Source: Psammoneis japonica
Lineage: Eukaryota
Direction of reading: 5' to 3'
NCBI GenBank assembly: GCA_008632985.1
Contig: QPGO01000111.1
Coordinates: 62,001-126,000 of the forward strand
Length of the DNA: 64,000 bases
In this document: in pieces, positions 25,371 through 62,500 of the stretch
Layout: every line of letters starts with the position of its first letter
How positions within the stretch are numbered: the stretch's first letter is position 1
Notes under the pieces: model-generated
What the model was told of the DNA's origin: nothing
The model's database searches: none
Seen by the model: only the letters and a program-made list of their open reading frames with translations
Program-made: the position numbers and the translations under genes

Positions 25371-25431
25371 AACTATCTACCTCGTTTGCCTAATTTAGCT
25401 ACTTTATTATTTACACAATTGCCACAAAATA

Positions 25432-29082: not shown

Positions 29083-32000
29083 TACAATGGCCATCCAGCA
29101 GTTCCTCACATCCAGCCACGGTTGCACAACAAGTGGGATTTGTGCAGCAGAATTCGTTGAAACACACTGTGCGACGTCAGCAAGAACATGTGTCTGGCAC
29201 GCATCCCACACATCTGTTGCACTTGGCAGCAGATCGAGACATGAGGCGTCACAGTCGTACAAACGTCGTATGGTCGTAGTGGGTAGAACCGACTTCAACT
29301 ACGAGACACATCATCGCACATTGAACTTCCACAAGATGTCGTTCCCGCTGACGTTCACAACCTCACCGGTGTGATGCCGCTGCTGTTTTGGCAGCACATC
29401 CCAATGCAGAACGCACGAGCGAACGATGACGTGTCAAGCAAATCGAGACGAGCGATCTACAGCGTGTCGGGTCCGTCAATCATGCACGGAAGTTTGCTTC
29501 AACCCTCATTTTTCATGAGATCTGAACTTTTGCAAAGGAAGACTCTCCAGCCATCTCGACACAAAGCATCGCCAGTTGCAGCTGAGACAATGTCTGCGGG
29601 GACCAGAGTGCACTGGTCGCAGAGTCTGCAGAGACCGGGAAACACCGGTTGCAGATTTGTCACATCGCGTTCATTGTCATTCATTGTGCTCTTGATGTGC
29701 TGAAGATTTGTTGCACACACTCGTCTGCTGAGTCCAGAAAACACTGGAAGTGGACCCTGCAGTGACTGGGAACACCAGTTGCAGGTCGGATCATCCACCA
29801 TCCATTGATCATGTTGACTTTACTCAGATTGTTCTCATTGCAAGTCTCATGGGTCGTCGTGTTATCTGGTGTGCACCTGTTGCTGCGTTGTTGGTTCAAC
29901 TTGTCTTTGCGCAGTGTGAGCCTGCCGCTCCACAAGCTGTCTTATGGATGACAGCAACACCAGGCACCGAGACAACACAAACAGACGTTTTGAGAAGCTT
30001 TGTTGCAGGAATGGAAACGAGTGCGTCCCTTGGGTTTGTTTGGTGTGTGACAGATTGTCAAAACCGTCTCAGACTGCTCGACTTTCTGTCAACAAATTGA
30101 AAGAAGCCAGACACCTGTTGACTCCATCTGAATGGAACCAAGTGTCGGAAGACCTGCACGATTGTTGTCGCATCGATGACGACCACATTCCACGGGATTG
30201 CCGATGGATTTCCGACCTGTCACTTTCGCCAAGAGCTCGACACATTGTTCCGAACGACAACAGAAGGTCTGAAGGATTCACTTGTTGCAGGCCTTGTAAA
30301 AGGAGTCTCTGCACTGCTTCCATGCCTCCACACGCAACAGCAAATAATTGCTGTTTTGGAACACCACCACCTGAATTATCGTGTCTTACCGAAGTGGAAC
30401 CAGCTTTTGTTGACACCTGTGAAAACACATGGCTGCTGCTTCAGTTTTGTCGGTGGTGAACAGAAGAAACTGCAAGGCAGTCTTTCCTGTTACAAGATAA
30501 ACACAAAGAGCATCGCCCGCACCATTGTGCACTTTGACGTGTTGAACCTTCATCAAAATGTGGTTGTGTTGGCATCCGGCAAAATGACACCAGAGCAAAG
30601 GCGAATGGCCAGACAAAAGAACAAAATCAGGACTCACTGTGTGATGAGAGCACTGGAATGGCTCACCCATCACCACGAGAATTAGATGAATCAAGACATC
30701 GATCTAGAGGAAGTGCGAAGTAATTTACAGAATCCAGTTTTAGTGGACAACAGCAGTTCAGACGAAAGCGAAAATGCAAACATTGAAACCACAGAGTCCC
30801 ACAGTGTTTGTTTCCCCGATGGCACCGTTTCTTCAACAACTGGTGGACAACGCAATTTAGACAACTTCAAAGACTTGGTGCACGATGCAGCTGCAAGCGG
30901 TTTTGACATTGAATTCAAAGCTGATCTTTTGAAAGAATCAGTCAGTGACTTCAAGGACAACAACCTGGCAAATGCTTGCTTGCTGCAATTTCCTTGTGGG
31001 CGTGGCGGCATTGATGAAACAAGAATGAAAGAAGACGGGAGTCTTGCCGACTGTGCAAATCTAGCACATTGCGCAGATCACTTGGCCCGCATTTCTCAGC
31101 CCCATTTCCACAAGCAACTCTTTGTTCTGACCCTGTGCAATCTGACTGTGAAGCAACGAATGGTGCACAGTGCTGGATGGAAAGCAAGAGACAAAAATCA
31201 AGCCAGACAATTCTCAAATGAACTGACACAAGACGACGTCGACCGTGCCATGTGTGACAGACAGACCGGTGAACGCAGGAATTGCGCATTGGGACATCGT
31301 TTCTTGAGTGCAGTGGATGTGGTGTCGGCATCTGTTCCACATGCAAATGAAGCAGCAAAAAAAATGAGAAGAAATGCTGAAACCCACCAACACCACTTTG
31401 GACAACCTGGAGCATTTTTAACGACAAGCCCCGATGATGCCAATTCCTTTTTAGTTCAAATTTATACGGACATGCTCATCGACAAAGGCAGAGATGTGAC
31501 AGAAATGTCGGATGAAGAACCAACCGAAAAGGCTGAGGCAAGAAACGAGCTTCGTGTGGAGCACCCGGGTGTCACGGCTTTTGCATTCGAAATGTCATTG
31601 GAAATCGTCATAGAAGAAGCAACAGGATGGGACTTAAAAAGGAATTCACCCAGAGAAGATTTTGAATTCTACATGGGGAGACCCTCCGCTTTCACAGCTG
31701 CAATGGAAGAACAAGGTAGACTCTCGGCACACGGTCACATTCAGGCATGGTTTGAAGACACAAACACAGCAAGAGACAATCTGCATTCTGACAACAGAGA
31801 TTTTAGGCGTGATGGTAAAAGAACACTGTCCAAACTGACCAGTCGGATCTGCACAACTGGGTTGACATGTTTAAAGGACCCAACCCAACAGATGACAGCT
31901 GAGGAAAAAGAGAAACACATGCTCGGACTGAAAGCAACCCAATTGCCATTCATGACAAACAATGCGACTGCAGGACACAAGCTTCAAGGAAGCGGTGTCG

Positions 32001-32749
32001 ACAATGTGTTTGTGCACAGCTGGAGCCACACACAAAACTGGGCACATGTCATGCTCTCCAGGGTTAAGACCAGAAATGGTCTGCATCTTCGGCAACCGCT
32101 GAAGAGAGATTTAAGTCTGTGCAGACTGCCGGACGGGTGCAACACCCTGCTCCGGTTGATGGAAGGAAAAAGTGTCACACACTTCACCAACGAACAGCAT
32201 GATGACATTTTGCAGTCCAATTGACACACAGAACATTTTGACACTGCATGTGGGAATTATTTCTACATTTTGGAAAATGTTCCAAGCTTTGTGCGCGGGC
32301 TTGCAGGCGTGCCCGGCAACAACCGATAGAAAACAAAGGGTCCAATCTAATGGGTCGATGTCAGTGCATTGTTGCAATGACAGACACACTCAGCAACCAG
32401 TGATGCACAACGTCAGGACAGTTCTCTTGTCATCCACCATAGAACGATCACACCAGAATTGTCAAAAAGGGGAAACCCACGTCTCTTCTTGTGGCACATC
32501 CACACACGAATGCAAGAATTAAATCGCCATTTTTTGACACAACATTAAAACACAAATGTGGAATTGCGTCGCACATTAATTAATTGCGAACCCATCATTT
32601 AAGCGTGCGAATTTTTTAAAAAATGATTGGTGGCAAGTGAAGATCAAAGCTCTAAAATTTGATGCTCGCGCGCATGGCAATCCAAACCAGCCCGGGTTCC
32701 ACACCTCCTCACTTCGTGTCCAGAGTTCCCACCACAAAGGAGGAACCAA
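29083..32749 (+). mobile_element. Internally deleted Helitron-like rolling-circle transposon
   Basis: Absent from duplicate copy B. Encodes CxxC..MPPHATANN..GTPPPEL (DUF6570-like), LLQFPCGRGG, Rep motifs GQPGAFLTTSPDD and EEQGRLSAHGHIQAW, then jumps to PIF1-helicase C-terminal motifs AGHKLQG and HVMLSRVKT. Confidence 0.85.
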
Positions 32750-43817: not shown

Positions 43818-44905
43818 CATTTCCATTGTTCTGCCGTCGGCAAATTCCAAAGCCCTCTCTAGAGAGAGAGACTGCGGTGCTCCAAGCTGGTGCTTTTGTC
43901 CTCTCTCTGCTCTCTCGAACATCCAGCTCATTGGCTTCTCTCTTTCTTCTGTGTCCCAGCACAGTTCAAGAGAACAACAACTCAACTTTTTGTTCATCAT
44001 GTGGTGAAATGATGTTGCTTGTGTGGGCTGGTGAAAGGCTGATGCAGAGGCAAAGTGGTTAGAGACAGCTGGCTAAAAAAATGCAAAATGCAAGAAAAAC
44101 GATTGTGGTGCAGCGACACTGGCCACCATGAGACAGCTCTGTTCTTCTCTCATTGTGACCTTGGTCGGCACCTGTCATTGATGTGTGACAAAGGCCGCTG
44201 CATTTAGATCCCACCTGATGGCACCACAAGAGCTTTGAGTGCCATGTGGTGGGTGCTGATTTCTGTGGAAATTGGGACAAAACAATCACATGACAGAGGA
44301 TCCCAACGCAGCAAAGTCGTGCAGCGGCTCTGTGTCATCAAGCATGGAGGAGCCCCTCTCTGTTGGTCATGAAAGTTGCAAATTAATTTGCTCTCAGCAG
44401 CAGTGAGAGTGAGCATTTGGCCCTCTGTCAGCTGTCACCAGACATGTCAAGGCACCTCTGTGCATTTGCTGGAAGAAGTCAACAAACTTTTGCAACATGC
44501 GTTGTCATGTGCGCACCACATGTGCATGTCCACATGTCAAATAAAAGCACATTTCAATCGCACGTCAATCGTGGGTTCGTACGAAGTGCAGATCAGTCAC
44601 ACAGAAGTGATTGGATGTCGAGAATCGCAAATGCGATCGTACGATGATGTTGACATCTCATGTGTCAATGTCAATCGCATCCGGACAATCTGTCGTCACG
44701 ATCATATTCTCCGAAAGGCCTTTTGTCTGCAGGAGCAGCACAAAAGGTTTAGGCCATTGAGAACCCGTTCGGAGAAACCCAAAATGATTGCGCAGAAATG
44801 GTTCTCATAATTTTCACTTTTTGAACTTCATTCTACTTTCGTTTGCACTCGTTCTTCGAGCACAGTGCATTGTGCATACACACCACAGAAGGCAACAAGT
44901 TCAAG

Positions 44906-46060
44906 ATGAAGCTTTCACCTCATGCAACCAACGCCAAAACTTCGTCAAGGCAGGAGAAAATCGTCCCTCAACCGCTGGAATCGAACTCCGAGCCGAAGAG
45001 CCTCAAACCGAGCCAGCACCTCAAGATGGAGCAACGTTTTCATCCCGAGAAGAAGGACAGCCGCACCTGCACCATCAATGTTGAGTGCCACAAGAAACAA
45101 GGTGTCCCCAAGTTCATCGAATTTCTCAAGAGCTACGATCAACTTCCAGTGGGCCAGAATGTCAGGAAGCAATCTGATGAGTTTCGTCTCATGCACACGT
45201 TGCTCCAAGGAGACGCCCTGCGTGCTTTCGAGAATGCGGCAGCGAACCTTGAAGACGAATCTGCGGAAGGAAGCTTCGAGAAATGCCTGCAACATCTCAC
45301 GAGGCATGTGTTTCCCAAGAACGCACTTTCGGTGCAGAAACGTCATTTGCGTCGTGATCTCAAGAAGCCGGAGTCCATGAAAGTACGCGAAATTGCTGCT
45401 TGGGTCCAGGAAGTCAACGAAGACCTCAAGTTCCATCCTCCCTTTGGGAAGGAACAGAAGATCGAGGACGACGAGCTCAAGGACATCCTCTTCAACCTTG
45501 CACCTCGAAAGTGGCAGCGTCAGTCGACCGTCCAGGGTTTCGAAATTTTGAAACACACCCATGACGAGCTGGTTGAGTTCTTGGAGCGCCCAGAGGTCGC
45601 AGAAGACACATTTGATGGCATTCATGCCAAGGCTGATGGCAGTGGCGGCACTGCATCAAAAGCCAAGAGTGGTTCCCAACGTGGTTCCAAAAATGGTCAC
45701 CAACATGGTGCCGAAAAATCTCAGTCCGAGAAGTGGTGCATTTCATGCGAGAAATCCACTCACAACACGGACAAGTGCTGGTCGATCAAAAGACTTGCGA
45801 AAGAACGCCGTGGGAACTGTGAACCCGACCCGAAACGGCACCGTTCAAATGGCAATCGCACGTGGTCTCGTCGCGACAACGATGACGCCACTCGCAAAGA
45901 AGAGTTGAATGCTGTGGCGATCCAAGCAGTTCAAAAAATGCTCAAAGCGAGTTCTTCGAACAATGATGAAAAACACAAGAGCAAAGATTGTGATTCTGAC
46001 ACCCTTGACGAGGAAAATTGTCAGTTTGAAAAAATGACGCGCAGTGATTCCGAGGAATGA
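44906..46060 (+). CDS. gag: Gypsy Gag (hypermutated)
   Basis: Long ORF right after the 5' LTR with zinc-knuckle-like CISCEKSTHNTDKC. Confidence 0.85.
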   Translation: MKLSPHATNAKTSSRQEKIVPQPLESNSEPKSLKPSQHLKMEQRFHPEKKDSRTCTINVECHKKQGVPKFIEFLKSYDQLPVGQNVRKQSDEFRLMHTLLQGDALRAFENAAANLEDESAEGSFEKCLQHLTRHVFPKNALSVQKRHLRRDLKKPESMKVREIAAWVQEVNEDLKFHPPFGKEQKIEDDELKDILFNLAPRKWQRQSTVQGFEILKHTHDELVEFLERPEVAEDTFDGIHAKADGSGGTASKAKSGSQRGSKNGHQHGAEKSQSEKWCISCEKSTHNTDKCWSIKRLAKERRGNCEPDPKRHRSNGNRTWSRRDNDDATRKEELNAVAIQAVQKMLKASSSNNDEKHKSKDCDSDTLDEENCQFEKMTRSDSEE

Positions 46061-46156
46061 CTTGCACCGCAAGAGGAGTCTTGCGCTCCACTGGACATTG
46101 GGAAGCCCAGAAAAAGGGCCAAAGTAATTCATGCTAGTCCAGCAGTCGTCGCCCAT

Positions 46157-49100
46157 GTGAATGCTTCATTGGGCAAGGCGAAAAATGAGCCTCTACGCGT
46201 TCTCCTCGACAGCGGAACATCGTCAACCATAATTTTGCGCAAATTCACGCGGAAACTCAGAACAAAAGCATCCGCCACCAAACTCTGGGAAACCAAAGGA
46301 GGGCTCTTCACGACTGACAGTCGATGTAAGATCCAATTCTCCTCACCCGAATTTGACAAACATGAGATGATTGAAACAACGGTGTGTGTTGACAACTCCC
46401 CTTCTTCTTCGAGTCGTTATGACATGATCATGGGACGCGACTTAATGTCAAGTCTTGGGATGATGTTGGACTTCTCGAATGAAGAAATTAAGTGGGAAGA
46501 TGCAACTGCTCCTGTGAAGAATGTTGGCACACTCTTCGATGCCGATGTTTTTAAGTTGATTGCCGATCACATTGAGGAATCTCATGCAGTGATTGGTCTT
46601 AATGACAGGGTCAATCGGATCCTTGACTCAGACTGTCACGCTGCAAACCTCAACAATGTGACCGCAGCAGCCACTCATCTAACTCCTGAAGAGCAGAAGC
46701 AGCTGAACTTCCTCTTAAAAAGATTTGAAAACCTTTTCGATGGTTCTCCAGGCAAATGGACCGGGAAACCGGTGGATTTAAAGTTGAAATCGGGCGTGAG
46801 TCCGTATCATGCCAAACCATTTCCCGCGCCACAAGCCTTGGAGGCGACCACTCGTAAGGAGGTTGAAAGACCATGCAAGTTGAAAGTCTTAAGAAAAATA
46901 AATTGTTCTGAATGGGCGGCTCCAACCTTTGTTCAACCCAAGAAAAATGGCAGAGTTCGGTTCTTGTCCGACTTTCGAGAGCCAAACAAGAGGTTAATTC
47001 GCACTCCGTTTCCTCTGCCCAATGTTCAGGACATGCTACAGAAGCTTGAAGGCTTCATGCATGCAACGTCCCTAGATTTAAACATGGGACACTATCACAT
47101 CGAATTGACGCCGCATGCACGTCGGTTGTGCACGATCGTCATGCCTTGGGGCAAATGTGAGTGCTGTAGACTCCCGATGGGAATCTGTGGAGCTCCAGAC
47201 ATTTTCCAAGAGCACATGAGTGAGCTCATGGCAGGTCTGGAGTTCGTCAGAACTTACATTGACGACACATTGTGTCTTGCAAAAAGTGATTTTCAAGACC
47301 ACCTCAAGAAGCTTGAAACGGTGTTCTCACGCCTAGAACAAGCCGGATTGAAGGTCAATGCCGAGAAGTCCTTTTTCGCTAAACCCGAAGTAGACTGTCT
47401 GGGCTTTCATGTCACCCGCAAGGGCATCAGTCCGATTCCAAAAAAAGTAGAAGCGATTCACGCGATCGCAACTCCTAAAACTCGCAAGGAATTGCGACGC
47501 TTCATCGGTGTGATCAACTGCTGTCGAGACATGTGGCCTCGACGATCTCATGTTTTAGCTCCCTCAGCCAAACTCACTTCCACCCAAGTAAAGTGGCAAT
47601 GGACCGAAACAGAACAAAAAGCCTTCGAAAATGTGAAGCGCATCATCTCCAAAGATGTGCCATTGTCATGCCCGAATTTTAACACACCCTTTGAGATGTA
47701 CACCGATGCTGGTAAATCTCAATTGGGGGCGGTTGTCACTCAGAAAAACCGACCAATTGCCTTCTACAGCCGCAAGCTGAATGGAGCGCAGACGCGTTGT
47801 GCCACAACGGAAAAAGAGCTGTTGTCCACAGTGGAGACGTTAAAAGAGTTCCGAAATGTGCTGTTTGGCCAACAGACAAATGCATGTGCGGATCACAAAA
47901 AATCTCACACACAAAAATTTCACAATGGACAGAGTCATGCGTTGGCGTCCAACAATGGAAGAGTGCAGTCCCGAAACAATGTGCCTTGAGGGCAAGGCAA
48001 ATGTTGTCGCAGACGCGATCAGCCGACTTGCTGTGAAGAAAATAGAACCTGTGGAAACCCTCAGCACAGAAGAGCTGGCTGAAAAGGTCCTGCCAAAATC
48101 CTGCGACAATGTCTTTCCGTTAAATTACAAAGTTCTTGATTGTGAACAAAAATGGGATAAAGACATTCTCTCCCAATTGTCAAACAAGACGTTTCGTGCG
48201 AAGACTTTTCGTGGAGGCGAGCGAGACCGGTTGCTCATGTGTCACAAGGACAAAATTGTCGTCCCGAGGACGTTACAAAAGGCAGTGACAGATTGGTGTC
48301 ATGCATGCCTTCTTCACCCTGGCATAAATCGAACAGAAGAAACAATCTCACAACACCTGTGGTGGTCCACCTTGCGTGAAGACATACGAAAATACGTGTC
48401 GAGATGTGAGACGTGCCAAAAATTCAAAAAGAAACACAAGAAATGTGGACATTTACCTCCTGAGTGCGCAGAATCCGCACCATGGGAACGACTGTGTGTG
48501 GACCTTGTTGGGCCATACAAAATGCGTCGTAAGGGAAAGAAAAAACCCCCAGTCCTGAAATGTTTGACCATGATCGATCCAGCAACCGGATGGTTTGAAG
48601 TTGTGGAAATCCCAAATGAGGAGTCCACAACTGCAGCTGGACTGTTAGAACGAACATGGCCAAGCAGATGTCCTTGGCCATCGTCAATTGCACATGACCG
48701 TGGAAGTGAGTTCATCGGACACCAATTTGGAGAAATGGTGCAAGATGATTGTGGCGTTGAAGTCAAGCCCATGGCTGCACGAAATCCACAAGCAAACGCA
48801 ATTGTTGAACGCGCACATCAAGTGCTGGGGAACATGCTCCGTGCGTTTGATTTGCAACACACACCTCTAGATGCTGAGGATCCTTTCGCTGGAATGCTGT
48901 CAGCAGTGGCATTTGCGGTGCATTCCATGTGTCACACCACTGCGCAAGCTACACCAGGACAACCAGTCTTCAACAGAGACATGACATTTAACGTCCAACA
49001 TGTCACGGACTGGAAATCAATCCAGCAGCGAAAACAAGAAATCACAAATAAAAACAACGCTCGAGAGAATGCTCGACGTGCTCCTCACACGCACAGAGCA

Positions 49101-49241
49101 GGAGAAAAGACACTGCTCGAGAAAGACTCGCAAAAATTAGAACAGCCCCATGTTGGACCGCATGCAACAACAACGGCACATGCTGATGGCACAGCACAGA
49201 TCAAACGCAGTAACGTCATTGACACTGTCAACATTCGTTGA
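46157..49241 (+). pseudogene. pol: Gypsy Pol: protease, RT, RNase H, integrase (hypermutated; frameshift ~47900)
   Basis: LLDSG, SLDLNMGHYHI, LPMG, YIDD, YTDAG, TTEKELL, HPGINRT..CETC, CVDLVGP, DRGSEF, NPQANAIVER. Confidence 0.93.
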
Positions 49242-51820
49242 ACAATGCCGTTTAACGACTGACTCCAATGTGCAATTAGGGAGGCGAATGCAACATGCAT
49301 TGTCATGTGCGTGTTGCACATGTGTGTCCACACATTAAATAAAAGCACATTTCAATCGCACGTCAATCGTGGGTTCGCACGAAGTGCAGATCAGTCACAC
49401 AGAAGTGATTGGATGTCGAGAATCGCAAATGCGATCGTACGATGATGTTGACATCTCATGTGTCAATGTCAATCGCATCCGGACAATCTGTCGTCACGAT
49501 CACATTCTCCGAAAGGCCTTTTGTCTGTGGGAGCAGTGCAAAAGGTTTAGGCTGTTGAGAACCCGTTCGGAGAAACCCAAAATGATTGCGCAGAAATAAT
49601 TCTCACAATTTTCACTTTTTGAACTTCATTCTACTTTCGTTTGCACTCGTTCTTCGAGCACAGTGCACTTTCTTGCCGAGTGAGGACCCCACCCACAATT
49701 TTCTGCAAGCTTTTTGAGGACAACTTGGCAGTGCTTGAAACAGCCAAAGTGCCCAAGATGAGGCCCAGAACATGCCACATCAACAATGTCCACCACCACT
49801 TCCACTCAGAGGTTGCCGGTGGACGTTTGCTGATTGAAGTTGTTGGCACCAAGCTCCAACAGGCGGATTTCTTGACAACCAAAATGCCCAACCTGTCAAC
49901 ATTCTTGCACAATCATCTGTCTGTGCAGGGATGGCAACAACTTGGACCTTTCGGCATGAGGGAGTGTGACATCATGTGCACATTTGTGTGTTCAACATGC
50001 CTCAAGCTGCAAGAATGACTTGTTGCTGTGACCACCATCAACAACTGAACCACCTGCAGATCAATCAATGCAAACCCAATCAAGAATTTTGAGGCTCAAA
50101 TCAAGAAGAGAGTTCACTTTGTTCTTGTTCTCACACGAACAAGAACTTCTTGTTTGTGTCAAGTCTTTGACCCCTGTTCATCCATGTTGCCTTCAGTGCA
50201 TCTTTTGGTCACTTCTTGTTTCTTTGCAGCTCTTGTTGGTTGCAGAGCAGCACAATTCATGTTCTCACAATTTGGAAATTGGTGAAAACCAAACACTGCA
50301 TGATTGTCTGTGTCAATGCTGTTTTAAGTCTCTGTGGCCCAAAACTCCACACACCCACAGAAGGATCTCATCAGTGCATCATTTGTGGAGCTTGTCAGCT
50401 GACCCCTTGCTTGACAATTGAGGGAGTGGAGCAACATCCTTTCTGGTTGATGCGTCCACAGAAGACCTCTGAGAGTTTAGTTGCTGACCCAAAGTTTTGG
50501 TGCACCGCCGCGCAGTGCACCGGCAGCAAATCTGCTTGCTCTGTGAGACAAGACAGTTGTCCACAACAAAATTGTCACAGCTCACAATGCACATGCATCA
50601 ACAGCATTTTCTTGCATGACATTGAGTGGTCCAAGTGTTGCCTTTGGGAGGAAATGAAAAATGAACGAGAAATTTGGCACAAACACTCTTGCAAGAACCA
50701 GCATCATCACTCAACTTGCCAAATCTTGCCAACCAACATTTTGCAAAAATTGATCAATTCCACACAAACTGGGGGCACACTGTTCTCATGTGGAGTTTGC
50801 AGCAATGGCATGTGCCCCTGTTTTCCAAGGAAGAGAGAGAACACCACCACAAAAGCCTGTCAGGTGAACAGCATCAATGAGCTGCAGTGTTTGTGTGGCA
50901 CGATTTGTGTTCTGAGTGGCAAAATGGCTTGACAGTGTGCAGAATTGTTGCGGTGCATGGGCCTCTGTGCAAGCAAATCCATTTCCAGGGCATTTCACAT
51001 GCAGCCATTGTGGTGGTTGATGTTCAACAAAGGCCGAAAATGCATCTCATGTGACAAAGAGACAACATGTGAGAATGCCCAACTCCTTCTTCAGATTTGC
51101 CCCTTGGCTCAATTCACACAACCAAATGTTTGTGTGGAGGCCCCTGCTCATGGGTGGATCTGTCCAGCATTCCCAAATGCCCAATCGCGCTGATCAACAG
51201 ACTGTTTTTGCACAAACCGCAGCTGCTGCATGTAAATTTCTTCAACAGTCTCACTTCCGAAGGCGCCCCCCAACACCAACCCATGACACGGGCAGACAGC
51301 AGACCTGTTTTGGCAACTGAGGCAAGTGCGTGGCTGCAGGAAGTGGTCAGCCCCGCACACTTGTGACTTGGAGCTTTCTGCGGTGAAAATTGCGCACCCG
51401 ACCCGACACTGACAAAAACAGTCAGACAACTTCCGCTTGCCACAATGTGAGCTGCGTCTGATCAACAATTTGTGCAGAACAAGGGGCAACAGACAAAAGC
51501 CAGAACAAACATGTTTTGTGTTTGAAGTTGTTCAATGTTTTCAAACATTGTTTGAAGTGTTCAATTTTTTGTTGCAAATGTGTTGCTCTCCTGGGTTTTG
51601 CCCTTTTGGTCATTTCAAACTCATTCTGACAAAGTTTGAACTTGTTCCAACAAGCTTGATTGAAGTTTGGAACAGCATGTGCACAGTTGCACAAAAACAG
51701 CATTTTTTCTCTTGTTGCCCGGTGGGCAATGACAGAATTCTAAGAAGAGTTGAAGGTGCATGTCACTCTCTGGCTGAAACATGTGTGACCATGTACAAAA
51801 AGCCTGTCAGTTTGAAGAAA

Positions 51821-51884
51821 GCGGTAAATGGTTTAGTCGGTAACCGGTTACAAGAGGACCTAGGTTCGATTCCTGGGTATCGCA
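51821..51884 (+). ncRNA. tRNA-like Pol III unit in TRIM 5' LTR (no normal anticodon arm)
   Basis: A-box tggtttagtcgg, T-arm ctagg-ttcgatt-cctgg (B-box), acceptor-like gcggta/tatcgc-a, followed by TTTTT. Confidence 0.7.
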
Positions 51885-52321
51885 ATTTTTCAGGTTGATG
51901 GGTCGGATTTAATCGAGTTGGTCAATCTTGTTTAAATCCTGTCATGGTGCGAGGACCGTTGATGATTTGAACCCAGGTGTGTGTGCTCCTTCAAGATGAC
52001 TCTAAAACTGAGGAGAGGCTGCGGTGAGACAGACCGACGATGCACATAGTGCTCTTATTAGGGATGCCGAGGCCGGAATGGCCGCCCAATTATCAGTTCG
52101 CCGGGGAGGTCATGACATGTGCAGAAAAATGTGGCCCAGGTAGAAGGGGAGCTGTGAGAAGTATCATTGTCCAAAGAAAGGAACGTCAGACAGCTTCGTG
52201 ACGTCAGACAGCTTCGTGACATATGGGGAGTGACAGAATTCTAAGAAGAATTAAAGGTGTATGTCACTCTCTGGCTGAAACATGTGTGACTATGTACAAA
52301 AAGCCTGTCAGTTTGAAGAAA

Positions 52322-52385
52322 GCGGTAAATGGTTTAGTCGGTAACCGGTTACAAGAGGACCTAGGTTCGATTCCTGGGTATCGCA
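52322..52385 (+). ncRNA. tRNA-like Pol III unit in TRIM 3' LTR
   Basis: Identical to 51821-51884. Confidence 0.7.
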
Positions 52386-52446
52386 ATTTTTCAGGTTGAT
52401 GGGTCGGATTTAATCGAGTTGGTCAATCTTGTTTAAATCCTGTCAT

Positions 52447-55400
52447 TGACAGAAATTGAAGGCAAATGGCAAGAATTCAAACAACAACTCCTTGCTGCTG
52501 TCCAAATAGCAGATGAGTCTCCGCTCAGAGACCGTTGCAGGAGCCGAAAGACGTGTAAGTCGGTGTGATCGGGCTACTGTTGTCATTCTTGTGAACCTTG
52601 TGGCTCGAAAGCACACTGCATCGCGCGTGAACGCGCGGAACTGAAGCACACAAAACTGTGCACGGTGACTAAACAGCGCGCGATGCTTCGCGCGCACCTG
52701 AATCCTGCTCAAATCCTGTCACTCCCCAGTTTGCTTGAGGAGCCACAGAAACAGATTCGACTTCGGATGGAATGAAGTTCCAGAACATGAGGGGGCGGAG
52801 AAGGTCCCAGATTTGGGACAACCCCAATGCTTGCTGAGAATGTCAGCAGGGTTGCGGGAGCCTTCGATGAAGTGGAGCTCAAGGCAGCCAGAGGCAATTG
52901 CCTCACGCGCATGGTGGAACGACAGCGCGGCATGTCGCTTGTGCAACTTGGAGTGCGGGATGGTGGCACTGTCTGCAACCGACTTGTTGTCACCGAACAT
53001 GCAGCTGACGTTGCGGATCGGGACGCCAAGGCAGCGCAGGGTGATGCGCAGGTCGACAATCTGCTCAACACAAGTCCTTGCGGCAACAAATTCAGACCCG
53101 CAGGTCGCAGTCTCCACGGTGGCTTGTTTCTCAGAGAACCAATCAGCCGGGAATTTGTTGAGGAAGTGGAGCATTCCCATGACAGAGCGCCCGGTGAGCA
53201 TGCAATGGCACAAGTTTGCATCGACGCAGTGGGTGGTGGCGACGAACTTGCCAAGGGGCGGTGGAGCGTCCTTCGGGATCATCTCTTCTGCTCCACCACA
53301 CACGGAATGCATCCACCCACAGGCCGGAGCAGGGAGATCCGAATGGCCGGGCTCTTCCGTGCGACGCGGAGAGCACCGTGTCGCATCTTGGAGAGGTGCC
53401 CACAGACGCGCTTGGCACGATCCAAGTGGCCTTGACGGGGCGCAGCTCGGAAGCTGGAGAGTGACATGACGGCCGCGGCAATGTCAGCTCGACCAAGGGA
53501 CACTGCCCATTGGAGTGAACCAACAAGAGACTGGAACTTGTGATGCCATCGGGTCCCAGCAGTTCGGAAGTGTCCAGCTCGGGGTGGTCACCCTTCTCTA
53601 GAGGTGACAGGGCGTTGGTGGTGGGTTTCTCCCCAAACAGTCGGGCACAGCTGTCAACCATGCGCTCGATGTGCTTGCGCGGAGACAGGCACAAGGTTCC
53701 GTCGGGTTCCCGGGAAAAGTCGCAACCCAGATGGAACTCAATGGGTCCCGCACCCTTGAGCTTGAACTTGTGCTTTTCCGTGAGGGTGTCGACGAAAGAT
53801 TGAGGGTCCTTCATGGCAATGGCCAGGTCATCCACACAAACGGCAATGTGTTCACAGTGGTCGCCGTTCCTGCGCATCCAAATGTCGGGTTCGGCGCGGC
53901 AGGGGAAGAAGCCTTCAGCTCGCAGGCAGTCGGCGAAGCGCTCGTGCCAGCGGAGACCGGAGCTGCGCAGTCCATGCAGTGCCTTGTGGATGACAAGGAT
54001 GTGTCCTTCGAGTTTGCCGAACTCGGGTCCAGCTGCAATGTAAAGCTTCTCCTTGGTGGTGGCTTCAAGGTGGGCATTGCCAATGTCGGTGGCCCATGTC
54101 TCCAACTCGTTGAGTTCGGCCAGGAAAATCATCAGCCGAAGGCCACGGAGGGAGACTGCTCCGGAGTGGACACTGTCGACAGGTGCGTCCGTGAGGTGCC
54201 CGTCGGCTGCGAGTCGTGCCTTGTGGCGACCGTCGTGTTTCACGTCGCACACCAGGTGCACTCGGATCTTCTTGTGTCCCGCAGGAGGAGTGGAAGACTT
54301 GAAGGGCCCGCAGTCATGGAAGACTTCGCATTCGTCGAGTTGGTCCATCTCGAGATTAGTTGCGTCTCCCCACTTGCGGTTGCCGTTGCGTTCGTCTGGT
54401 GACATGGCGTGTTTGCAGTTCCGGGGAACTTCGCATCCATGCTTGCAGCGAGGTGCAGTGCGGAAGGAGCGAAGCTTGGCTTGGTTGGCCATGCGAAACA
54501 GCTTCTTTTGGCGCCTCGCGATGGTGCGGAACCGCTTCCAGCCATCCGTGTCGAGGAGTCCGATCTCTCGTGCATGGATGGCACAGGTGACGGGGTCGTC
54601 CTTGGCGATGATGGCAAGAGGCTCGGACGTGATCTCCCCACTTTCCCATTCAAGCATGATGTTGTAGCTGGAGCCTTTCCAGGTTGGGTCGTGAGGCTTC
54701 AGAGGTCCTTCGTGTGACACGATGCGTCGAAATTTCCAAACAGTGGTGTCTTCGTCTTCTTGCTCAATGTGATTCATGATGTCATTGCAGGCAAGGACTT
54801 CCTCGCATTCGTCATTGTTGACAGAGCAGACGAACTCAGTGAGCTCGGGATTGCCGTTCACTTTCCATTCGTGGTCTTCGACGGCCTTGACGATGCGAGC
54901 TCTGTGGCGTTGTCCGTCCTCTTGTGGCTGCATGAGGAAGGTGCGTCCAATGATGTCTTGCGGATCGAAAACTGGCATCTTGGGTGTCCTGATCTCCCCA
55001 TCAGGAGAGTCGACGGGGTTGTCGTCATGGCGAGATTTGATGATGGGTTCAGGTGGCTCCCCATCAGGAGGATCAAGACGCAGGTTTCGGACAGCAGGAT
55101 CGGGGGTGGCGGAGCGGACGTTGGACCGGCAGAGGATTTTCTGATTCTCGTCAGATAGAATCTTGAAGGTCATCTGGTGGCCGACGTGCTCAGCAATGCC
55201 AACGAAGCGTCCACGCAACTCACGGGATTCGGACGGCCAATCGGAGTCATCGAGGTGGAAGCACACGGGTTCCCACCAGTGAAAGCGAAGCAATGGGCTG
55301 ATGTCCGGGGTGGAGCCAGTGAGAGTCTCAAGGGGCGTGCGCCAGTGGAGACGTGGGGACGCTGTGTGGTTGAGCATGAAGCACACGCACATGAGCGCCA

Positions 55401-58400
55401 GCAGCCATGCATGGGCGGGCGAACCAAAACGATCCATGACAGTGTTCGCCATGCGCTTCACGGTCTGGCATCGACGCTCGGCAAAGTTTTGGTGTTGCTG
55501 GTGAGGCTCACTTTGCCAGCTAGAGATGAAGAGGGCGCGCAGGAGCCCGAGCACTTTGTTGCTGATCTCAACTTGAGCACGGTTGCTGATGAGTTTGGAT
55601 GGGGCACCACGTTCACGGATCTGATCCTCGAGTGTGTTGACAAACTCTTTGTCCGTCTTGGTGCCACAGACGTCAGTGACGGTAGACTCGGTGCCAACAA
55701 ACAGTTGGGCGCTGGTGCAACCAGAGTCAACGGCCGGGGTGTCGGCACAAACGGTGTCAGTGGCGATGGGCTCGTTGCGGCGGTGCACATTAAGGGCGGG
55801 GTTGGGTGATTTGCAGGCCTTGCGAAGGTGTGTACCGGCGGGCATGCGGGCGCACTGCGTGGTGCAGTCAAAAGTGCGACGGACCGCATCGGCAGGTGGG
55901 AAGCCAAAGCAAGGCCGAAGAGACTCGAAGGGGGGGTCCTTGGGCTGTGCAGTGCGCTCCGGAGGTGGAACATCATCGCCCTGGGGGCCAATCGCATGCA
56001 GATGACACTCGTAGAACACGTCGTCGTTCGGAATGAGGTGATCATCGAGGGCGGACGCGTGATCGGCAGACAAGGAAGCGGACATGATGGTCTCGTTGAC
56101 AACGACACGATGACGGCAGTTGCCGCATTCGTCAAATGGGTTGGCAGTGGGATCGTCCTGCAGGTCAGAGATCGCATCGCACCACTGGTCGTCGTCAGTG
56201 ACAGAGTGATCGAGGACGGAAGGGTCCCATGTGTCATCACCGGTGAGGATGACATGGGGCAGGGTGTCCCATTCGGCGTCAGTGCAAGGTCGCATGGCAA
56301 CATGAGGCAGGCCAGCCTTGATGTCAATGGGGATGACACAGCCATCAGGAGTGGCAGTGCGTTGCAAGCCGTTGGGCACCTTGACAGAGCGATCGTTGAC
56401 ATCCTGTTTGTGCCATTCGAGCTGGCCGCAGGAATGGATGGTCTTGCCCTTGCCCGTGCATGCGTGCTGATGGAGTGTGGCGATGACGGGACCACGCTGG
56501 GTCTCAATGACGGCACCAGCGGTGACAATGGGGATGTCCACCAATTGATGATCGTCAATGCCCTGAACGTCGACTTGGCGAGAGGTGCGTGCAATGACGC
56601 GAACGTCGTCGCCAGCAATGCCGCCGTTGGCCCCACGATCGACTAGAGCACCAGTGCGTGTGGAGCGATGAGCAGAAGCAGAGCAAATGACATTGTGGTT
56701 GTCAACGCGGCGGTAAGTGCGACCGTCAAGTTCCATGTCATCTGCAGAAGCTGGCGGGGTAGAGGAAGCGGCGGATGGCCCCGGTCGACTGGCATTGGGG
56801 GCTTGGTTAGGAGACAACAGACGTTGCAGATCACCGGGTGGCAGTGGCTTGTGCTTGGTGAGGTGCGCCAGGATGGGATTGTCCGAAGTGGCGTCCACAT
56901 GTGGAGCGGAGTCACCAGAGTCAGCAGGAGTCGTGTTGGACAAGTTGACATCACCGTCACTCCCAAGGCGTTGGTCGTGAAGGTTGGCCGTAACAGACTC
57001 ATGGCAGTTGCTGGCTCGCGGGTTGCGGGGAGGTGGACGAGAATGCTCAAGGATGATCGCCTTGGAGGAATCGGGCAACGAATCCCAGAGCCGTTGGTGG
57101 TCGGGAGGGAGACGTCTCCATTGGACACCGGCGAGGCTGGGACCGCGGGTGCAGGCAGCATTGGCTTGAAGGACGTCAACGTCGCTGTCAATGTCGTAGA
57201 ACACATCGTCGGACGGTTCCTCGGAGTGGACGTCGTGTGCGCACATGGCGCGTCGGGGAGCTCGAGGTGTCGTCTTGGGTTGAAACGTGCTGTCGTGCTG
57301 AGCTGCGGCGGAGAGGAGCAAGCCACAGCATTGATCGTATGTGAGGCTCTTGCCACTCTGCGCACGATGCTGATCAGCTTGGTTCTTGACAGCACGGAGT
57401 TCCTCGACAGGGTGCACGGCATTCTCGAGCATGACGCGCTTCTGTCCTTCAGAGAAGTGGTCACTGGCCGGGATGAGTGCCTCGCACTTGCGCAACTGAT
57501 CTTGCCAATGAAGGATGAACCCGTGGGTCGGACCTTTCCAAGTGCCATCACCAAGACGCGCGGTGGTGAGGTGCGTGAGCAGGGTGGAGGACTCGACAGA
57601 TGCGCGGGTGGAGGCAAGCGCGCACTCAGACAAGGAGCGGCAGACGGTCTGTGCATCAGAAGACCCCACATTTTCGCGAATGAGAGCCTTGCCCTTGTCG
57701 GTGAGAAGGATGCGTTCGAAGACGGCGAACATGCACTTTTGCTGTTCAGCAAAGAGCAGTTTGTCTTCGGGGCTGGTCGGTTTGTACGACGAGTCTAGAA
57801 TGCACTCGACGTCTTGGGCACGGGCTTGTGCCACAAGTGAGGTGTGCCAAGTGTGCCACTGCTTGTCGGATTTGAGAGCCGTGAAAGCGGTGGGATCACG
57901 CTTGATGCCTCGCTTGAAGTCCCGCACCGGGTCGCGTGCCTTGGTCGGGTTGGTGACATGTGGAGGTGCAAGGGGTGAGCTGCCGATGGACACAGAAGAC
58001 ATGCAGTCGGGGCTGAGGCGGCAGGCAAGGAACTCGTCATGCGTGAACAAAGAGGAGTCGTTGGCAACGTCAAGACCTTTGTGTGCTTTGACAATGTGCA
58101 GACTGACCAGTGCTGCTAACATGTTCTTACAACCATGGGGCAAAGGGATTGCATTGGTGCCGTTGTCGTGCTCAAGCGAGTCGATTTGGGACGGTGTGAA
58201 CGTGAATGGTTCCTGATGCGAGTCCGTGCCGTCTTGGGCCAAAGCCAAACGAAGAGGACTCCCAGCACCTTGGGCAAGCACGGTTCCAACCACGTGCTCA
58301 AAAACCATCGGTTTGTTGCTGACGAGTGAGAACCATGGCAGACAAAGGTGGTGTCAGGACAATCAATTCTGGTTGGGAAGCGAAGGTGGACTCGAAACTT

Positions 58401-59554
58401 GGGTGAGAACAGACTTGACTTGAAATGGACTTGACTTGAAATCTTGAACTGTCTTAAAATCAGAAGTCGCCGGGCTTTGTCATCCCGTTCGTTGTTGAGT
58501 GCTAAACTTCCTGTCCGGTCCGTAGAGTTGTGCCGGCACGTCCGAACCCGCAGCCAGTGGCGCTTTGGGTTGCTTACGAGCGGAGTAGCGGGTTGTAAAC
58601 CCCTGCAGGCAAGCTGACTAGAGGTGGACAAGACCCCCGAACCGTTCTTGTTTTATGTCGGTTGGATTTCCCGATCAGGCTGGCCAGCTGATGCAGGCGT
58701 CAGGCGCTGTGGACGAACGAACAAACGCGGGAAAGCACCCTCGCCCCAACGCAGGCTGTGATCACGGCCACCTGCTCTCACAGTCGTCCTCGTGGACCTA
58801 GCAGAACTGTAGAGCACCAGCAGTCCGGGGTGGATCAGGTGCAATGGACTCGGTGTGCTTGCAGAGTGGCAGCAAAACCGAAGTCCGAAGAGTGGATAAA
58901 GGTTCTTGGCCGTGAAGACATGCACATGTACACACATGTCTTCAGCGACGAAGATCCTTGAACATGCAGGGTTCTTGACCGTTAACCGAGGAACAGGCAC
59001 ATCAAGGGATGTTGATCAAGGATGGGACTTGGACATGACCGTTGAATGTAAGTCTTCAGCGATCAAAGGCAGCACAATCAATCCAGATATCCAGCGGTAA
59101 GGAGACTTGACGGTGACGTTAACTTCCTGCCGATGCCCTGGTGTTGAATGCGCGTAGACTTGCCGATGTATGTAGAACACACACGGAGGTCCACGTAGAA
59201 TTGAAATAGCGTCGTTGGTAAATCAACGACGACGATGGCGGTTGCTCAATGGGTTGACAATGAGCAAGACTGTTAATCTGACAGAAATTGAAGGCAAATG
59301 GCAAGAATTCAAACAATGACTCCTTGCTGCTGTCCAAATGGCAGATGAGTCTCCGCTCAGAGACCGTTGCAGGAGCCGAAAGACGTGCAAGTCGGCACAA
59401 TCGGGCCACTGTTGTCATTCTTGTGAGCCTTGTGGCTCGAAAGCAAACTACATCGCGCGTGAACGCGCGGAACTAAAGCACACAAAACTGTGCACGGTAA
59501 ACTAAACAGCGCGCGATGCTTCGCGCGCACCTGAATCCTGTTCAAATCCTGTCA
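52447..59554 (-). mobile_element. Full-length Ty1/Copia (CoDi-like) LTR retrotransposon
   Basis: ~275-bp LTRs at 52447-52721 and 59279-59554, PPT actggggag adjacent to 52721, domain order gag-PR-IN-RT-RH, ~1 kb 5' leader. Confidence 0.95.
52719..58336 (-). pseudogene. Copia Gag-Pol polyprotein (hypermutated; frameshifts near 58310, 53540, 53330)
   Basis: LVDRGANGG (PR), EPHQQHQNFAER (IN), DVKHDGRHKARL, DIGNAHLEA, KALHGLRSSG, AVCVDD (RT; YVDD>CVDD), VDANL, ETATCGSEF, NPADILSK (RH). Confidence 0.93.
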
Positions 59555-59559
59555 GGCAA

Positions 59560-62500
59560 TGCTGCACCTGTCCCACTTGTGCTTTGCAACCATCAAGACA
59601 AACCATGCACAGCTGAATCCCAATGTCATTGCAGCACTGCACACAATCCTTCATGGGTTCATGGACAAGTTGGGGTCATCTCGCAGCAGCGCCAACATGT
59701 CGTTGCATTGGAAGCGGCAGCATTTTGGTCATGGCAACATGGTTTTGTTCCACTTGTTTGTGCAAGTGCTGTTGGGGTCATGTCATTCCCACCTGATGAC
59801 ACATTGTTTCCTCATGGACATTTGCTTGTTGTCACTTGCCAGAGGACACAGACAAATCATTTCAAACAACTTCAAACACTTTGAACAATCTCTTGGGCAA
59901 TGTGAAGGGCAACAGAGACAGAAACCTCCAAATGTTTGAAGCTTTTGTCCATCCCACACAATGTCCATGTGGAGACACATTGACAGGAATTGGGAATCTT
60001 CCACTTCTTTTTCAAACCTTTGATGTTTCCTGGATCACCCATGAGCACAATTGATGGAAAAAGGAGGGGAGCAGCAGAGCAAGGTGCCAGGCATGTGGCT
60101 GTGGTGCAGCAGCTGCCATTGAGCATTGGCCCTCTGGCTGACTGTTGACACAATCAGAAAGAAGTGCCCAACAGACAAGTGCCAGCTGCTGCAGCATGTC
60201 TCTGGAGGTCTCTGGAACATTCTTTTGATTTGTTGGTGCAACTTGAGTTGCGGCGTGCAGCTCAAAGTCAAGGGGAGGGGGAACAGGGGGGGGCAAGAAA
60301 TGGCGCACTGGTGCACAGAAGACACAGGAGCAGCAAGGCATCTGCAGGAACCACAGCTTTTGCTGTTGAAAAAACAAAAGATTTGCATTCTTGGACAGTG
60401 CCATGGTTGCCATGAATTGCAAGTTTTTGGAAGGAAGTTTGAGTGCCACACAAGTTGCATCATGTGAAAAGGTGAAGTCTGGTCACAAAAATTCTTGCAC
60501 AGAAAGAAGCACAAAGTGAAAAGCAAAGAGGAGGGTCTTGCAGGATGAGCTGGTTGTTTGTTTTGCAGTGGGCTCAATTTTGACATTCAAGCAGTTGAGA
60601 GAAGCAAACTCCAGGTGCAGTTTTGACATGAAATGGCCAGCTTCTCAAAGATTTTCTTTCACCCAGTTTGTGCTGTGGCACAGGTGCCGTGTGGACAGCA
60701 GCTGCAGCTTGGGGGGCAGCGACAGGTGGCAATCCAGACACACCAGCTTGCTGTTTTGAAAAAGCTGCAGTTGCAACCCAACAAAGCCAGACAGCAGTTC
60801 CCAGAAGCAAACCTCTTGCATGAAGTTGGGCTGTTGCCACTGAGATGCTTTTGGATGTGAGGAAGGGAAACAAGAGAGCTCATTTCCAGCTGCTGGCTGG
60901 GCTGGATGTTTGTGAGTAAAAGCAGGCATCATGCTGCAGCTGGCACAAGCAAAGTCACTGGAGATGACTCAAACTGGGGTCACGTGCATCATGATGTTGA
61001 AAAAGGGGAGCAGGAGCATTGGATCAAAAGGAAACAGAAAAGGCACTGCAAAGGCAAGGGCACCCCCACTGAGGTTCTGAAAAGCATGCCAAATTTGCAA
61101 CCCAGTTGCCCAGCAGCATCCCTGTGAAAGAGTTTTGTTGTTGCTGCATTTCTGTCTTGCACTCATCATCCAAGTTCAGGAGTGTAAATTGGTGAATTGG
61201 AGAAGCTGATGATTTGATCAAGGTGCTGAAGCAACACAAAAGGTTGAGTGTGTGCAGGGCAGCAAGCCACATTGCAAGCCTGTGCAAGTTAAAATCACAC
61301 ACAGATGAGCCATGGTGAGGCACTGAAAAGAGTGACAAAACAAGCTGGTGGGGGGACAAACTGTGAAGCATGCTCATGGTGTGCAAGCACAAAGCTCTTT
61401 TTCAGCATGCTGCATTTTTTAGGCACTGGCCAGAGGGCTGCAGCCAACTCTCTTTTCAACCAGGTTTCAGTGCTTCTGTCTCTTGATGTCTCAGTCTTTG
61501 CTTCTCATGAAGTGTGATGAGGGTTCCAATGCAATGACATGGAGTTGTCATGTGTTGGGGCCCCACAATCCATGGCACAGAGATTTGGGGACAACATGAA
61601 ATGAGTGTGCATGACATCATTGATCAAAACAGAGTTGCGCTTGGGGTGCATTTCTCTTTCATTGGCACCAGCACAAAAGGATGATGATGAGCAAAGGAAG
61701 CAGCTGAGGTGCACCCCAGACATTGCCTTCTTCCAAACCATCACAATGTTCCCACTCAGCACTGTCACTTGGGCTTCAGAGTTGGGGCCTGGCAGCTGTG
61801 ATGTGACTCCATCTTGAGCTGCTTGCAAGCAGTGACTTCACAGACACAGCAGCAGTGAGGGCCTGGAGGCAGCTCAATGAGAGTGGATGACAAAAGCAGA
61901 CATCAGAAGACATGTTGCACATGCTCACAGAACAGCTCAATTGGGGACCAATGAGCAACCTCTGATCAAAAACAACCTTGCTCAGCAGCAAATGTCAGTT
62001 TCAAGGGTTTGAAGCAGCAGCAGCAAATGCTCCAGTCTAGGTGCTGCATGCACCACAGATTCTTTGGTGGAAAGACAGAACGAACCAGTGCTTGTGCTCT
62101 CTGTGCATCTAAAAAAAACTTGCTGAGCAAAGGCAGGCAAGACAAAGGCTGCATCATGCACCTTGGGCACATGATGCCTCAGCTGCCTTTGAACTTTGGC
62201 GCCGGGCATGTGCACTGGTTTCTTGCACCCCTCCCATCCCTTGGTGGTGAGAACAAAACCAACTTGACCTGACAGACAAGCTGGAATGGTGCTGTGCCAG
62301 CACAAGCATGCCTGAGATTGGTGTGGAGGTGGAGGATGTGGATTGAATCAAGAGATGAATCAAATTGACATGAAGTCACATGCACTCACCTTGTGCACAG
62401 ACAATGCTGTCCTTGTGTGGACACCAAGACTTGTTTGGGATTCACTTGGTGACTTGAATGACGCCATCCAACACCAAGAAATTGCTGCAATGGGTGGATT

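Follow-up and report, generated by a model that had tools for sequence, protein, structure and literature searches.

A probable Helenus-type miniature retrotransposon with a tRNA-like unit in each long terminal repeat, abutting a Ty1/copia element in the diatom Psammoneis japonica

The element and its tRNA-like units

The stretch of DNA analysed here (the window; 64,000 nt of contig QPGO01000111.1 of Psammoneis japonica) contains at positions 51730-52445 a 716-bp retroelement in plus orientation that is bounded by long terminal repeats (LTRs), lacks protein-coding capacity and lies next to a Ty1/copia element (Table 1). The repeat search of the window returned a direct repeat pair (51723-51945 and 52224-52446), and the borders of the two LTRs of the retroelement, designated LTR-A, were set by trimming this pair to TG...CA ends. 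The resulting twins are alike at 211 of 215 positions, the 4 differences corresponding to 98.1% identity. The primer-binding site (PBS) carries the string TGGTGCGAGGACC and is matched at the other end of the internal domain by a short polypurine tract (PPT). The internal domain has no other match anywhere in the 64-kb window, and the only long frame crossing the element (51437-51898) shows no Pfam match. The combination of a short LTR pair, a PBS, a PPT, no coding capacity and a length below 1000 bp is the architecture of a terminal-repeat retrotransposon in miniature (TRIM). The first-pass annotation had described a 716-bp TRIM with 215-bp LTRs, each containing a tRNA-like unit, and this description is confirmed by the repeat pair, the TG...CA ends, the PBS and the PPT.

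Table 1. Positions of the TRIM, its tRNA-like units, the abutting copia element and the shared flanks (window coordinates)
Feature	Position	Strand	Description
5' LTR of TRIM (LTR-A)	51730..51944	+	215 bp, TGACAG...CTGTCA
tRNA-like unit, 5' LTR	51821..51884	+	64 nt, Rfam RF00005
T5 run, 5' LTR	51886..51890	+	starts 2 nt past last base of unit
PBS-like TGGTGCGAGGACCG	51945..51958	+	TGG-type, tRNA 3'-end type; immediately 3' of 5' LTR
Non-coding internal domain	51945..52230	+	286 bp, unlike copia interior
18-bp unit repeated 2.1 times	52183..52220	+	TGACGTCA in each copy
PPT-like TGGGGAG	52224..52230	+	adjoins 3' LTR on its upstream side
3' LTR of TRIM (LTR-A)	52231..52445	+	215 bp, TGACAG...CTGTCA
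tRNA-like unit, 3' LTR	52322..52385	+	64 nt, Rfam RF00005
T5 run, 3' LTR	52387..52391	+	starts 2 nt past last base of unit
Single T between TRIM 3' end and copia LTR	52446..52446	.	sequence read
Copia 3' LTR (LTR-B)	52447..52721	-	LTR pair search
Copia open frame	53143..58308	-	1721 aa, RVT_2 at residues 1342-1552
Copia 5' LTR (LTR-B)	59279..59554	-	LTR pair search
GGCAA, left copy of target-site duplication of TRIM + copia composite	51725..51729	.	same 5 bases at 59555-59559
GGCAA, right copy of target-site duplication	59555..59559	.	matches 51725-51729

The unit found in each LTR lies in sense orientation, the same as that of the PBS and the PPT. In both LTRs the alignment with the Rfam tRNA model spans model positions 1-71 at a score of 17.0 bits. 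The corresponding Rfam E value is 1.9 for 1 kb searched on 2 strands with 4227 families; by arithmetic from this value, about 4.5e-4 chance matches per kb are expected from the tRNA family taken singly, or about 0.03 over the entire window. An exact box B, GGTTCGATTCC (51863-51873 in the 5' LTR), is present at just two sites in the window, one per LTR, with an expectation of 0.05 per shuffled window. Box A, whose consensus is TRGCNNAGTNGG, reads TGGTTTAGTCGG at 51829-51840 in the canonical register, giving 10 of 11 matches and a single mismatch (C11 to T); when it is read against the pattern TRGCY..YGG, the sequence is TGGTT..CGG, again with one mismatch (C to T). Furthermore, the acceptor strands are paired at 6 of 7 positions. 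Regarding the anticodon arm, only 8 nt stand in for 17 model positions in the Rfam alignment. The runs of five thymines (T5) that follow the units are the sole runs of four or more T on the sense strand of the whole TRIM; each is possibly a terminator for RNA polymerase III (Pol III), or a copy of the oligo-U tail of a pre-tRNA. The LTRs therefore carry a tRNA-derived sequence with both internal promoter boxes, box A with one mismatch and the Rfam score below threshold. Every particular given in the first-pass annotation for this unit, namely its 64 nt, the two boxes, the acceptor pairing, the oligo-T run and the lack of a normal anticodon arm, is recovered.

Several observations weigh against the recognition of the unit as a tRNA. 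The score of 17.0 bits is below the Rfam gathering score of 29 for the tRNA model, and ARAGORN at default settings reports 0 tRNAs. Relaxed ARAGORN settings return odd spans in the LTRs, but also 38 (-ps80) and 227 (-ps70) calls across the window; these results are noise, and the relaxed search is consequently uninformative. Folded at minimum free energy, the 70-mer does not form a cloverleaf (-19.7 kcal/mol, z -1.9, with 9 of 200 shuffles as good or better). In the covariance-model check proposed earlier, the full-length RF00005 alignment stands, with a score under the gathering value and no ARAGORN call. Neither a cloverleaf with an anticodon arm nor a call by tRNA finders, as expected of a functional tRNA gene, is present. 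Since the unit has no anticodon arm, it cannot function as a tRNA, and the sequence is regarded as genuinely tRNA-derived but decayed.

Copies of the element were sought in three DNA contig sets of one sample, one of them possibly the source sample of the window, aligned to positions 51500-52900. The window itself contains no second TRIM copy. A depth of 62 was recorded for the contig running from the unique left flank into LTR-A, and two contigs of the TRIM interior have depths of 385 and 424; summed contig depth is 197-2622 in the TRIM bins vs 45,000-770,000 in the LTRs of the adjacent copia element (LTR-B), values that are depths of contigs and not copy numbers. In addition, a 634-nt contig matches positions 52323-52445 with 21 differences, and the match ends at 52445; the LTR border is thereby confirmed in a second copy, which is diverged and has a different flank. 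The TRIM is taken to be multi-copy at a modest level, and the copia LTR family to be vastly more abundant.

These data bear on the simplest alternative, namely that the tRNA resemblance is due to chance and that the repeat pair is a local duplication with no retroelement involved. The negative ARAGORN result, the sub-threshold Rfam score and the lack of a target-site duplication (TSD) belonging to the TRIM alone are all compatible with it. However, the covariance alignment covers the full model at the per-family expectation given above, an exact 11-base box B is a rare event in a window of this composition, the TG...CA ends, the TGG site and the purine tract fall at the exact LTR borders, and the contigs show further copies with other flanks. 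This explanation is consequently regarded as hardly credible.

Other sequence collections were also scanned. The pattern running from the D-arm to the T-arm had 0 matches in the metagenome scan, and the TRIM strings had 0 matches in the viral-contig scan and in the prokaryote-genome scan. A metagenome scan for tRNA 3' ends complementary to the PBS yielded at least 120 stretches. ARAGORN, run on 60 of them, placed a tRNA at the matching site in 35 (31 Leu, 2 Lys, 1 Glu and 1 Gly); among the other 25, a tRNA was found only elsewhere in 1 and no tRNA in 24. The tRNAs complementary to the PBS in these metagenomes look like prokaryotic genes of mixed isotype.

Further structural details of the TRIM can be described. 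The first 8 bases of the PBS, TGGTGCGA (51945-51952), are complementary to the 3' end of the unit (51877-51884) supposing an added CCA; this complementarity is probably a coincidence of tRNA-end composition. When LTR-A is folded as RNA (51730-51944), the energy is -69.7 kcal/mol (z -4.9, equalled by 0 of 200 shuffles), the tRNA-like unit is located at the tip of an 18-pair stem that requires 7 G-U pairs, and a second hairpin is present at about 51756-51796. Just upstream of the purine tract, the 18-bp tandem unit contains the palindrome TGACGTCA, which is a site of the cAMP response element/basic leucine zipper type and could act as a regulatory element of the TRIM for RNA polymerase II (Pol II).

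Known relatives and the putative helper

TRIMs of this kind form a published class. The name Helenus was given to TRIMs of less than 1000 bp whose LTRs contain a tRNA-derived sequence (Kojima 2024, Biology 13:119, PMC10886601), and the same paper unites Helenus with the 5S-bearing Cassandra and Ajax under the name TRIMp3. According to its main text, Helenus shows conservation of box A (TRGCY and YGG) as well as of box B (GGTTC), the units are mostly non-functional as tRNAs, and the retention of boxes and T run with a decayed middle recurs independently in many families (Results 3.5). For fungal Helenus families, 5-bp TSDs and an apparent dependence on copia elements are reported there. The hosts listed in Table 1 of that paper are fungi, six animal phyla and Selaginella; its main text does not contain the terms "diatom", "stramenopil", "oomycet" or "protist", and its supplementary tables may add hosts. 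In Maumus 2009 (PMC2806351), the terms "TRIM", "non-autonomous", "primer binding" and "tRNA" were searched for and do not occur, and the literature searches, judged by titles and the first parts of abstracts of the papers listed, returned no report of a TRIM, a SINE (short interspersed nuclear element) or Helenus in diatoms.

The present element resembles Helenus, as described in that main text, in being a TRIM below 1000 bp with a PBS, a PPT and, in each LTR, a sense-oriented tRNA-derived unit that has boxes A and B and is not a working tRNA; moreover, both a helper of the copia type and a duplication of 5 bp are implied here, as for the fungal families. It differs in its diatom host, a group missing from Table 1 and the main text of the describing paper, in the outright deletion of the anticodon arm, and in the lack of a TSD of its own in the present copy. 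It also shares its LTR termini and PPT with the adjacent copia element, whereas Kojima 2024 places the similarity in the PBS or internal parts and not in the LTRs. A complementarity between PBS and unit like the one noted above, which is probably coincidental, is not reported for Helenus in the main text of that paper.

Like Cassandra, the element is a non-autonomous LTR element whose LTRs contain a unit that stems from the gene of a small RNA, with an internal Pol III promoter and a terminator; the unit is of 5S origin in Cassandra and of tRNA origin here, where promoter and terminator are putative. The tRNA-derived SINEs (SINE2) likewise possess a head of tRNA origin in which boxes A and B form an internal promoter, but they lack LTRs, a PBS and a PPT and are moved by the machinery of long interspersed nuclear elements (LINEs), and the TRIM has neither a SINE body nor a SINE tail. 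Retrozymes, as presented in PMC5680766, are also LTR elements that lack coding capacity and whose LTRs each contain a small motif of structured RNA; in contrast, their motif is a hammerhead ribozyme, and no ribozyme family of Rfam matched the TRIM at E values up to 10.

Taking these likenesses and differences into account, the element is probably a Helenus-type, TRIMp3-like TRIM in a diatom, mobilised by copia machinery and carrying a unit derived from a tRNA sequence captured in an LTR, and this unit may still recruit Pol III. The earlier designation as a tRNA analogue of Cassandra is right with regard to anatomy; the class has already been published as Helenus and TRIMp3 (PMC10886601). The concept of a tRNA-bearing TRIM is not new, and any function of the unit is putative. 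What is new here is the host group, which is missing from the describing paper as far as its Table 1 and main text go, and the TSD-less position at the end of a copia LTR.

The element at 52447-59554 is a minus-strand Ty1/copia element. RVT_2 near the C-terminus is the sole Pfam match of its long frame, even at E values up to 1. The loss of TpA in this region, described below, removes TAA and TAG stops, and long open frames in the window are therefore no evidence of intact genes; several further long frames have no family match. The comparison of LTR-A with LTR-B shows that the first 8 bases (TGACAGAA) are identical, that 18-19 of the last 21 are alike and that the middles are unrelated, the common ends being TGACAGAA...AAATCCTGTCA. 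In addition, TGGGGAG stands directly 5' of the 3' LTR in both elements, each in its own orientation (52722-52728, minus strand, for copia). The gypsy LTRs of the window have ends unlike those of LTR-A and LTR-B. The common LTR ends and PPT consequently point to a helper of copia origin, from a lineage in which the specificity of integrase and PPT is the same. This assignment is weakened by the sequence that follows the copia LTR, which differs from the PBS of the TRIM, and by the unrelated interiors of the two elements; for this reason the neighbour may not be the helper, and a sister family may be. An origin of the TRIM interior as a deletion derivative of the adjacent copia element was considered and rejected, as no similarity was found.

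The history of the element can be outlined tentatively. A copy of a tRNA gene with its terminator, or a retrocopy of a pre-tRNA, would have entered an ancestral LTR in sense orientation, and retrotransposition would then have carried the unit into both LTRs. The unit would later have lost its anticodon arm, with box A kept near-intact, box B exact and the oligo-T run retained. Having no protein of its own, the TRIM would depend for its copying on a reverse transcriptase and an integrase supplied by an autonomous Ty1/copia-type element that has the same LTR ends and TGGGGAG.

If the assignment is confirmed genome-wide, tRNA-bearing TRIMs would be extended from fungi, animals and a lycophyte to diatoms, and the tRNA-like matches in diatom genomes may in part be LTR-borne relics. 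A diatom Helenus fits the view that such elements originated repeatedly. Furthermore, the LTR ends and purine tract held in common with copia offer a concrete candidate for the helper lineage, which is rarely available for TRIMp3. What is known of the working of such elements is unchanged by the present finding.

Possible transcription by RNA polymerase III

Because boxes A and B and the oligo-T run are kept, the unit may still recruit TFIIIC and Pol III. The strongest form of this proposal is that the unit is an active Pol III promoter which makes the genomic RNA of the TRIM, so that the element would be a TRIMp3 in the full sense; on the sequence features at hand this is possible, though rather doubtful. 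Transcription would start just upstream of 51821, pass the first T5 by partial read-through and terminate in the 3' LTR, at its T5. The unit would then serve as the R region and the last 54 nt of the LTR as U5, and the genomic RNA would measure about 570 nt. The sense orientation, the near-intact box A, the exact box B and the position of T5 where the terminator of a tRNA gene sits are all in agreement with such a role, and there is no run of four or more T between the two T5 runs. Moreover, PMC10886601 summarises a report that the 5S promoter of Cassandra drives its transcription. For Helenus, Pol III transcription is described in the same paper as not validated.

Four points weigh against an active promoter. 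In the 5' LTR, too, a T5 follows the unit; unless this run is leaky, Pol III would terminate there after about 70 nt, and a genomic RNA made by Pol III would therefore need read-through at this site. The spacing of boxes A and B affects transcription, and the gap between them is here reduced by about 10 nt relative to a normal tRNA gene. The depletion of T runs is not significant, since 658 of 2000 shuffles are also free of internal runs of four or more T. Finally, conservation of the boxes does not exceed that of the remaining sequence in this LTR, which is young and little diverged. In the contigs, where variants were counted at 5% of depth or more, the variants listed for the 3' LTR affect at least 3 of 64 nt in the unit (52352, 52353 and 52379) vs at least 7 of 151 nt elsewhere; none of the variants listed falls in box A or box B, a point in favour of a promoter. 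As variants are no rarer inside the unit than outside it in this LTR, there is no visible sign of selective constraint. At position 52352, T accounts for 750 of 784 of the contig depth, and the copy in the window consequently has a private TA-to-CA change, present in both LTRs. Both boxes are accordingly unaltered in the copies recovered, and the unit shows no measurable excess of conservation over the sequence around it.

The competing explanation is that the unit is an inert passenger, either a retro-inserted pre-tRNA or the fossil of a tRNA pseudogene, and that the TRIM is transcribed by Pol II or by read-through; its probability is judged to be appreciable, somewhat short of even. It is favoured by the lost anticodon arm, the weak fold and sub-threshold score, and the absence of any visible excess conservation of the unit. 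An imperfect direct repeat (10 of 13 bases) around the segment formed by AAA, the unit and ATTTT is of the kind left by retro-insertion; 62 of 2000 shuffles reach it, and it is therefore only a weak hint of such an event. On the other hand, sense orientation, both boxes and the T run are kept while the middle is decayed, which is the pattern that promoter use would preserve, and the independent recurrence of this pattern in many Helenus families, cited above, also speaks against an inert passenger.

Placement beside the copia element and other features of the window

The copy of the TRIM in the window has no TSD of its own: its flanks are GGCAA and TTGAC, and a duplication of 4-6 bp, as expected of a Helenus element, is absent, which counts against a canonical insertion. 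The copia element likewise lacks matching 5-bp flanks of its own. GGCAA occurs on the left of the TRIM and on the right of copia (Table 1), and one duplication consequently flanks the pair. The chance of a specific 5-base match is about 1 in 1024, and about three such comparisons were made. A nested insertion with a hidden TSD, in either order, was rejected, as the flanks would need two further events. The literature search for composites with a single TSD found no useful published case.

The relative age of the two elements is indicated by the loss of TpA. The observed/expected ratio of TA is 0.02 in the 1.7 kb on the left of the TRIM (50000-51729), 0.03 in the 1.9 kb on the right of copia (59555-61500), 0.15 in the copia interior (52722-59278), 0.21 in the gypsy element (44491-49588) and 0.59 in the TRIM; CA and TG are in excess in the TpA-depleted DNA around it. 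The differences between LTR twins are mostly TA vs CA or TG, and some sites are CA in one twin and TG in the other. For the inferred TpA site-copies, losses between twins amount to 3 of 26 in the LTRs of the TRIM and to 11 of 18 in those of copia (Fisher p 0.0009); differences of the TpA type make up 3 of the 4 in LTR-A and most of the 16 in LTR-B. The non-TpA differences, 1 in 215 for the TRIM vs 4 in 276 for copia, do not distinguish the pairs (p 0.39). Since the TRIM is far less TpA-mutated than copia, it is probably the later arrival.

The present TRIM copy is accordingly young, and it probably entered after copia by a non-canonical route. The copia element would have inserted first, generating the GGCAA duplication, and the TRIM would have entered later, exactly between GGCAA and the end of the copia LTR, with no duplication of its own. 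One conceivable route is a crossover of a TRIM 2-LTR circle, with the junction CTGTCA-T-TGACAGAA, with the identical TGACAGAA at the end of the copia LTR; a single crossover at TGACAGAA would give exactly the observed sequence, the extra T included. A second conceivable route is half-site integration completed by end joining. Such a TSD-less placement at the LTR end of another element would be a small case of non-canonical retroelement insertion.

An alternative to later entry is co-integration, in which the TRIM and copia cDNAs would have been linked by their tails, with the extra T marking the junction, and inserted by one integrase acting on their two U3 ends. The single GGCAA duplication around the pair, with none for either element alone, the presence of TGACAG at both outer ends and the tail-to-tail arrangement are all accounted for by this event, which, if true, would be a direct fossil of trans-mobilisation and is the more interesting alternative. 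The difference in TpA loss between the two LTR pairs argues against it, as does the position of the TRIM as an island with a TA ratio of 0.59 amid values of 0.02-0.15; both fit a later arrival, provided that the mutator responsible for the TpA loss does not act unevenly over such distances. Co-integration is therefore considered unlikely.

The same island of TpA admits another explanation, in which TFIIIC and Pol III on the unit form a chromatin barrier that shields the TRIM from a repeat-directed mutator changing TpA to TpG or CpA, the unit being kept for this reason. This reading is very improbable; if true, the escape from silencing suggested in the first-pass annotation would be literally true.

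Other features are present in the same window. The gypsy element lies at about 44491-49588, and its LTR repeat (44491-44860 and 49289-49650) extends past the 300 bp given by the repeat finder, the copies being still alike after 44790 and 49588. A Helitron-like frame is located at 30686-32224. A hybrid histidine kinase with GAF, HisKA, HATPase and receiver domains occupies 24341-27944 on the minus strand and is split over three frames. Two 243-aa frames on the opposite strand (24407-25138 and 25498-26229) lie exactly 1091 bp apart in the kinase region, which suggests a tandem duplication of the receiver-containing part of the kinase. The ESM Atlas search returned bacterial histidine-kinase clusters only. 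Among the matches listed for the kinase, 8 of 120 carry an organism name, and all of these are diatoms at 30-42% identity: Entomoneis, a Bacillariaceae metagenome-assembled genome, Epithemia, Amphora, Seminavis (twice), Attheya and Nitzschia.

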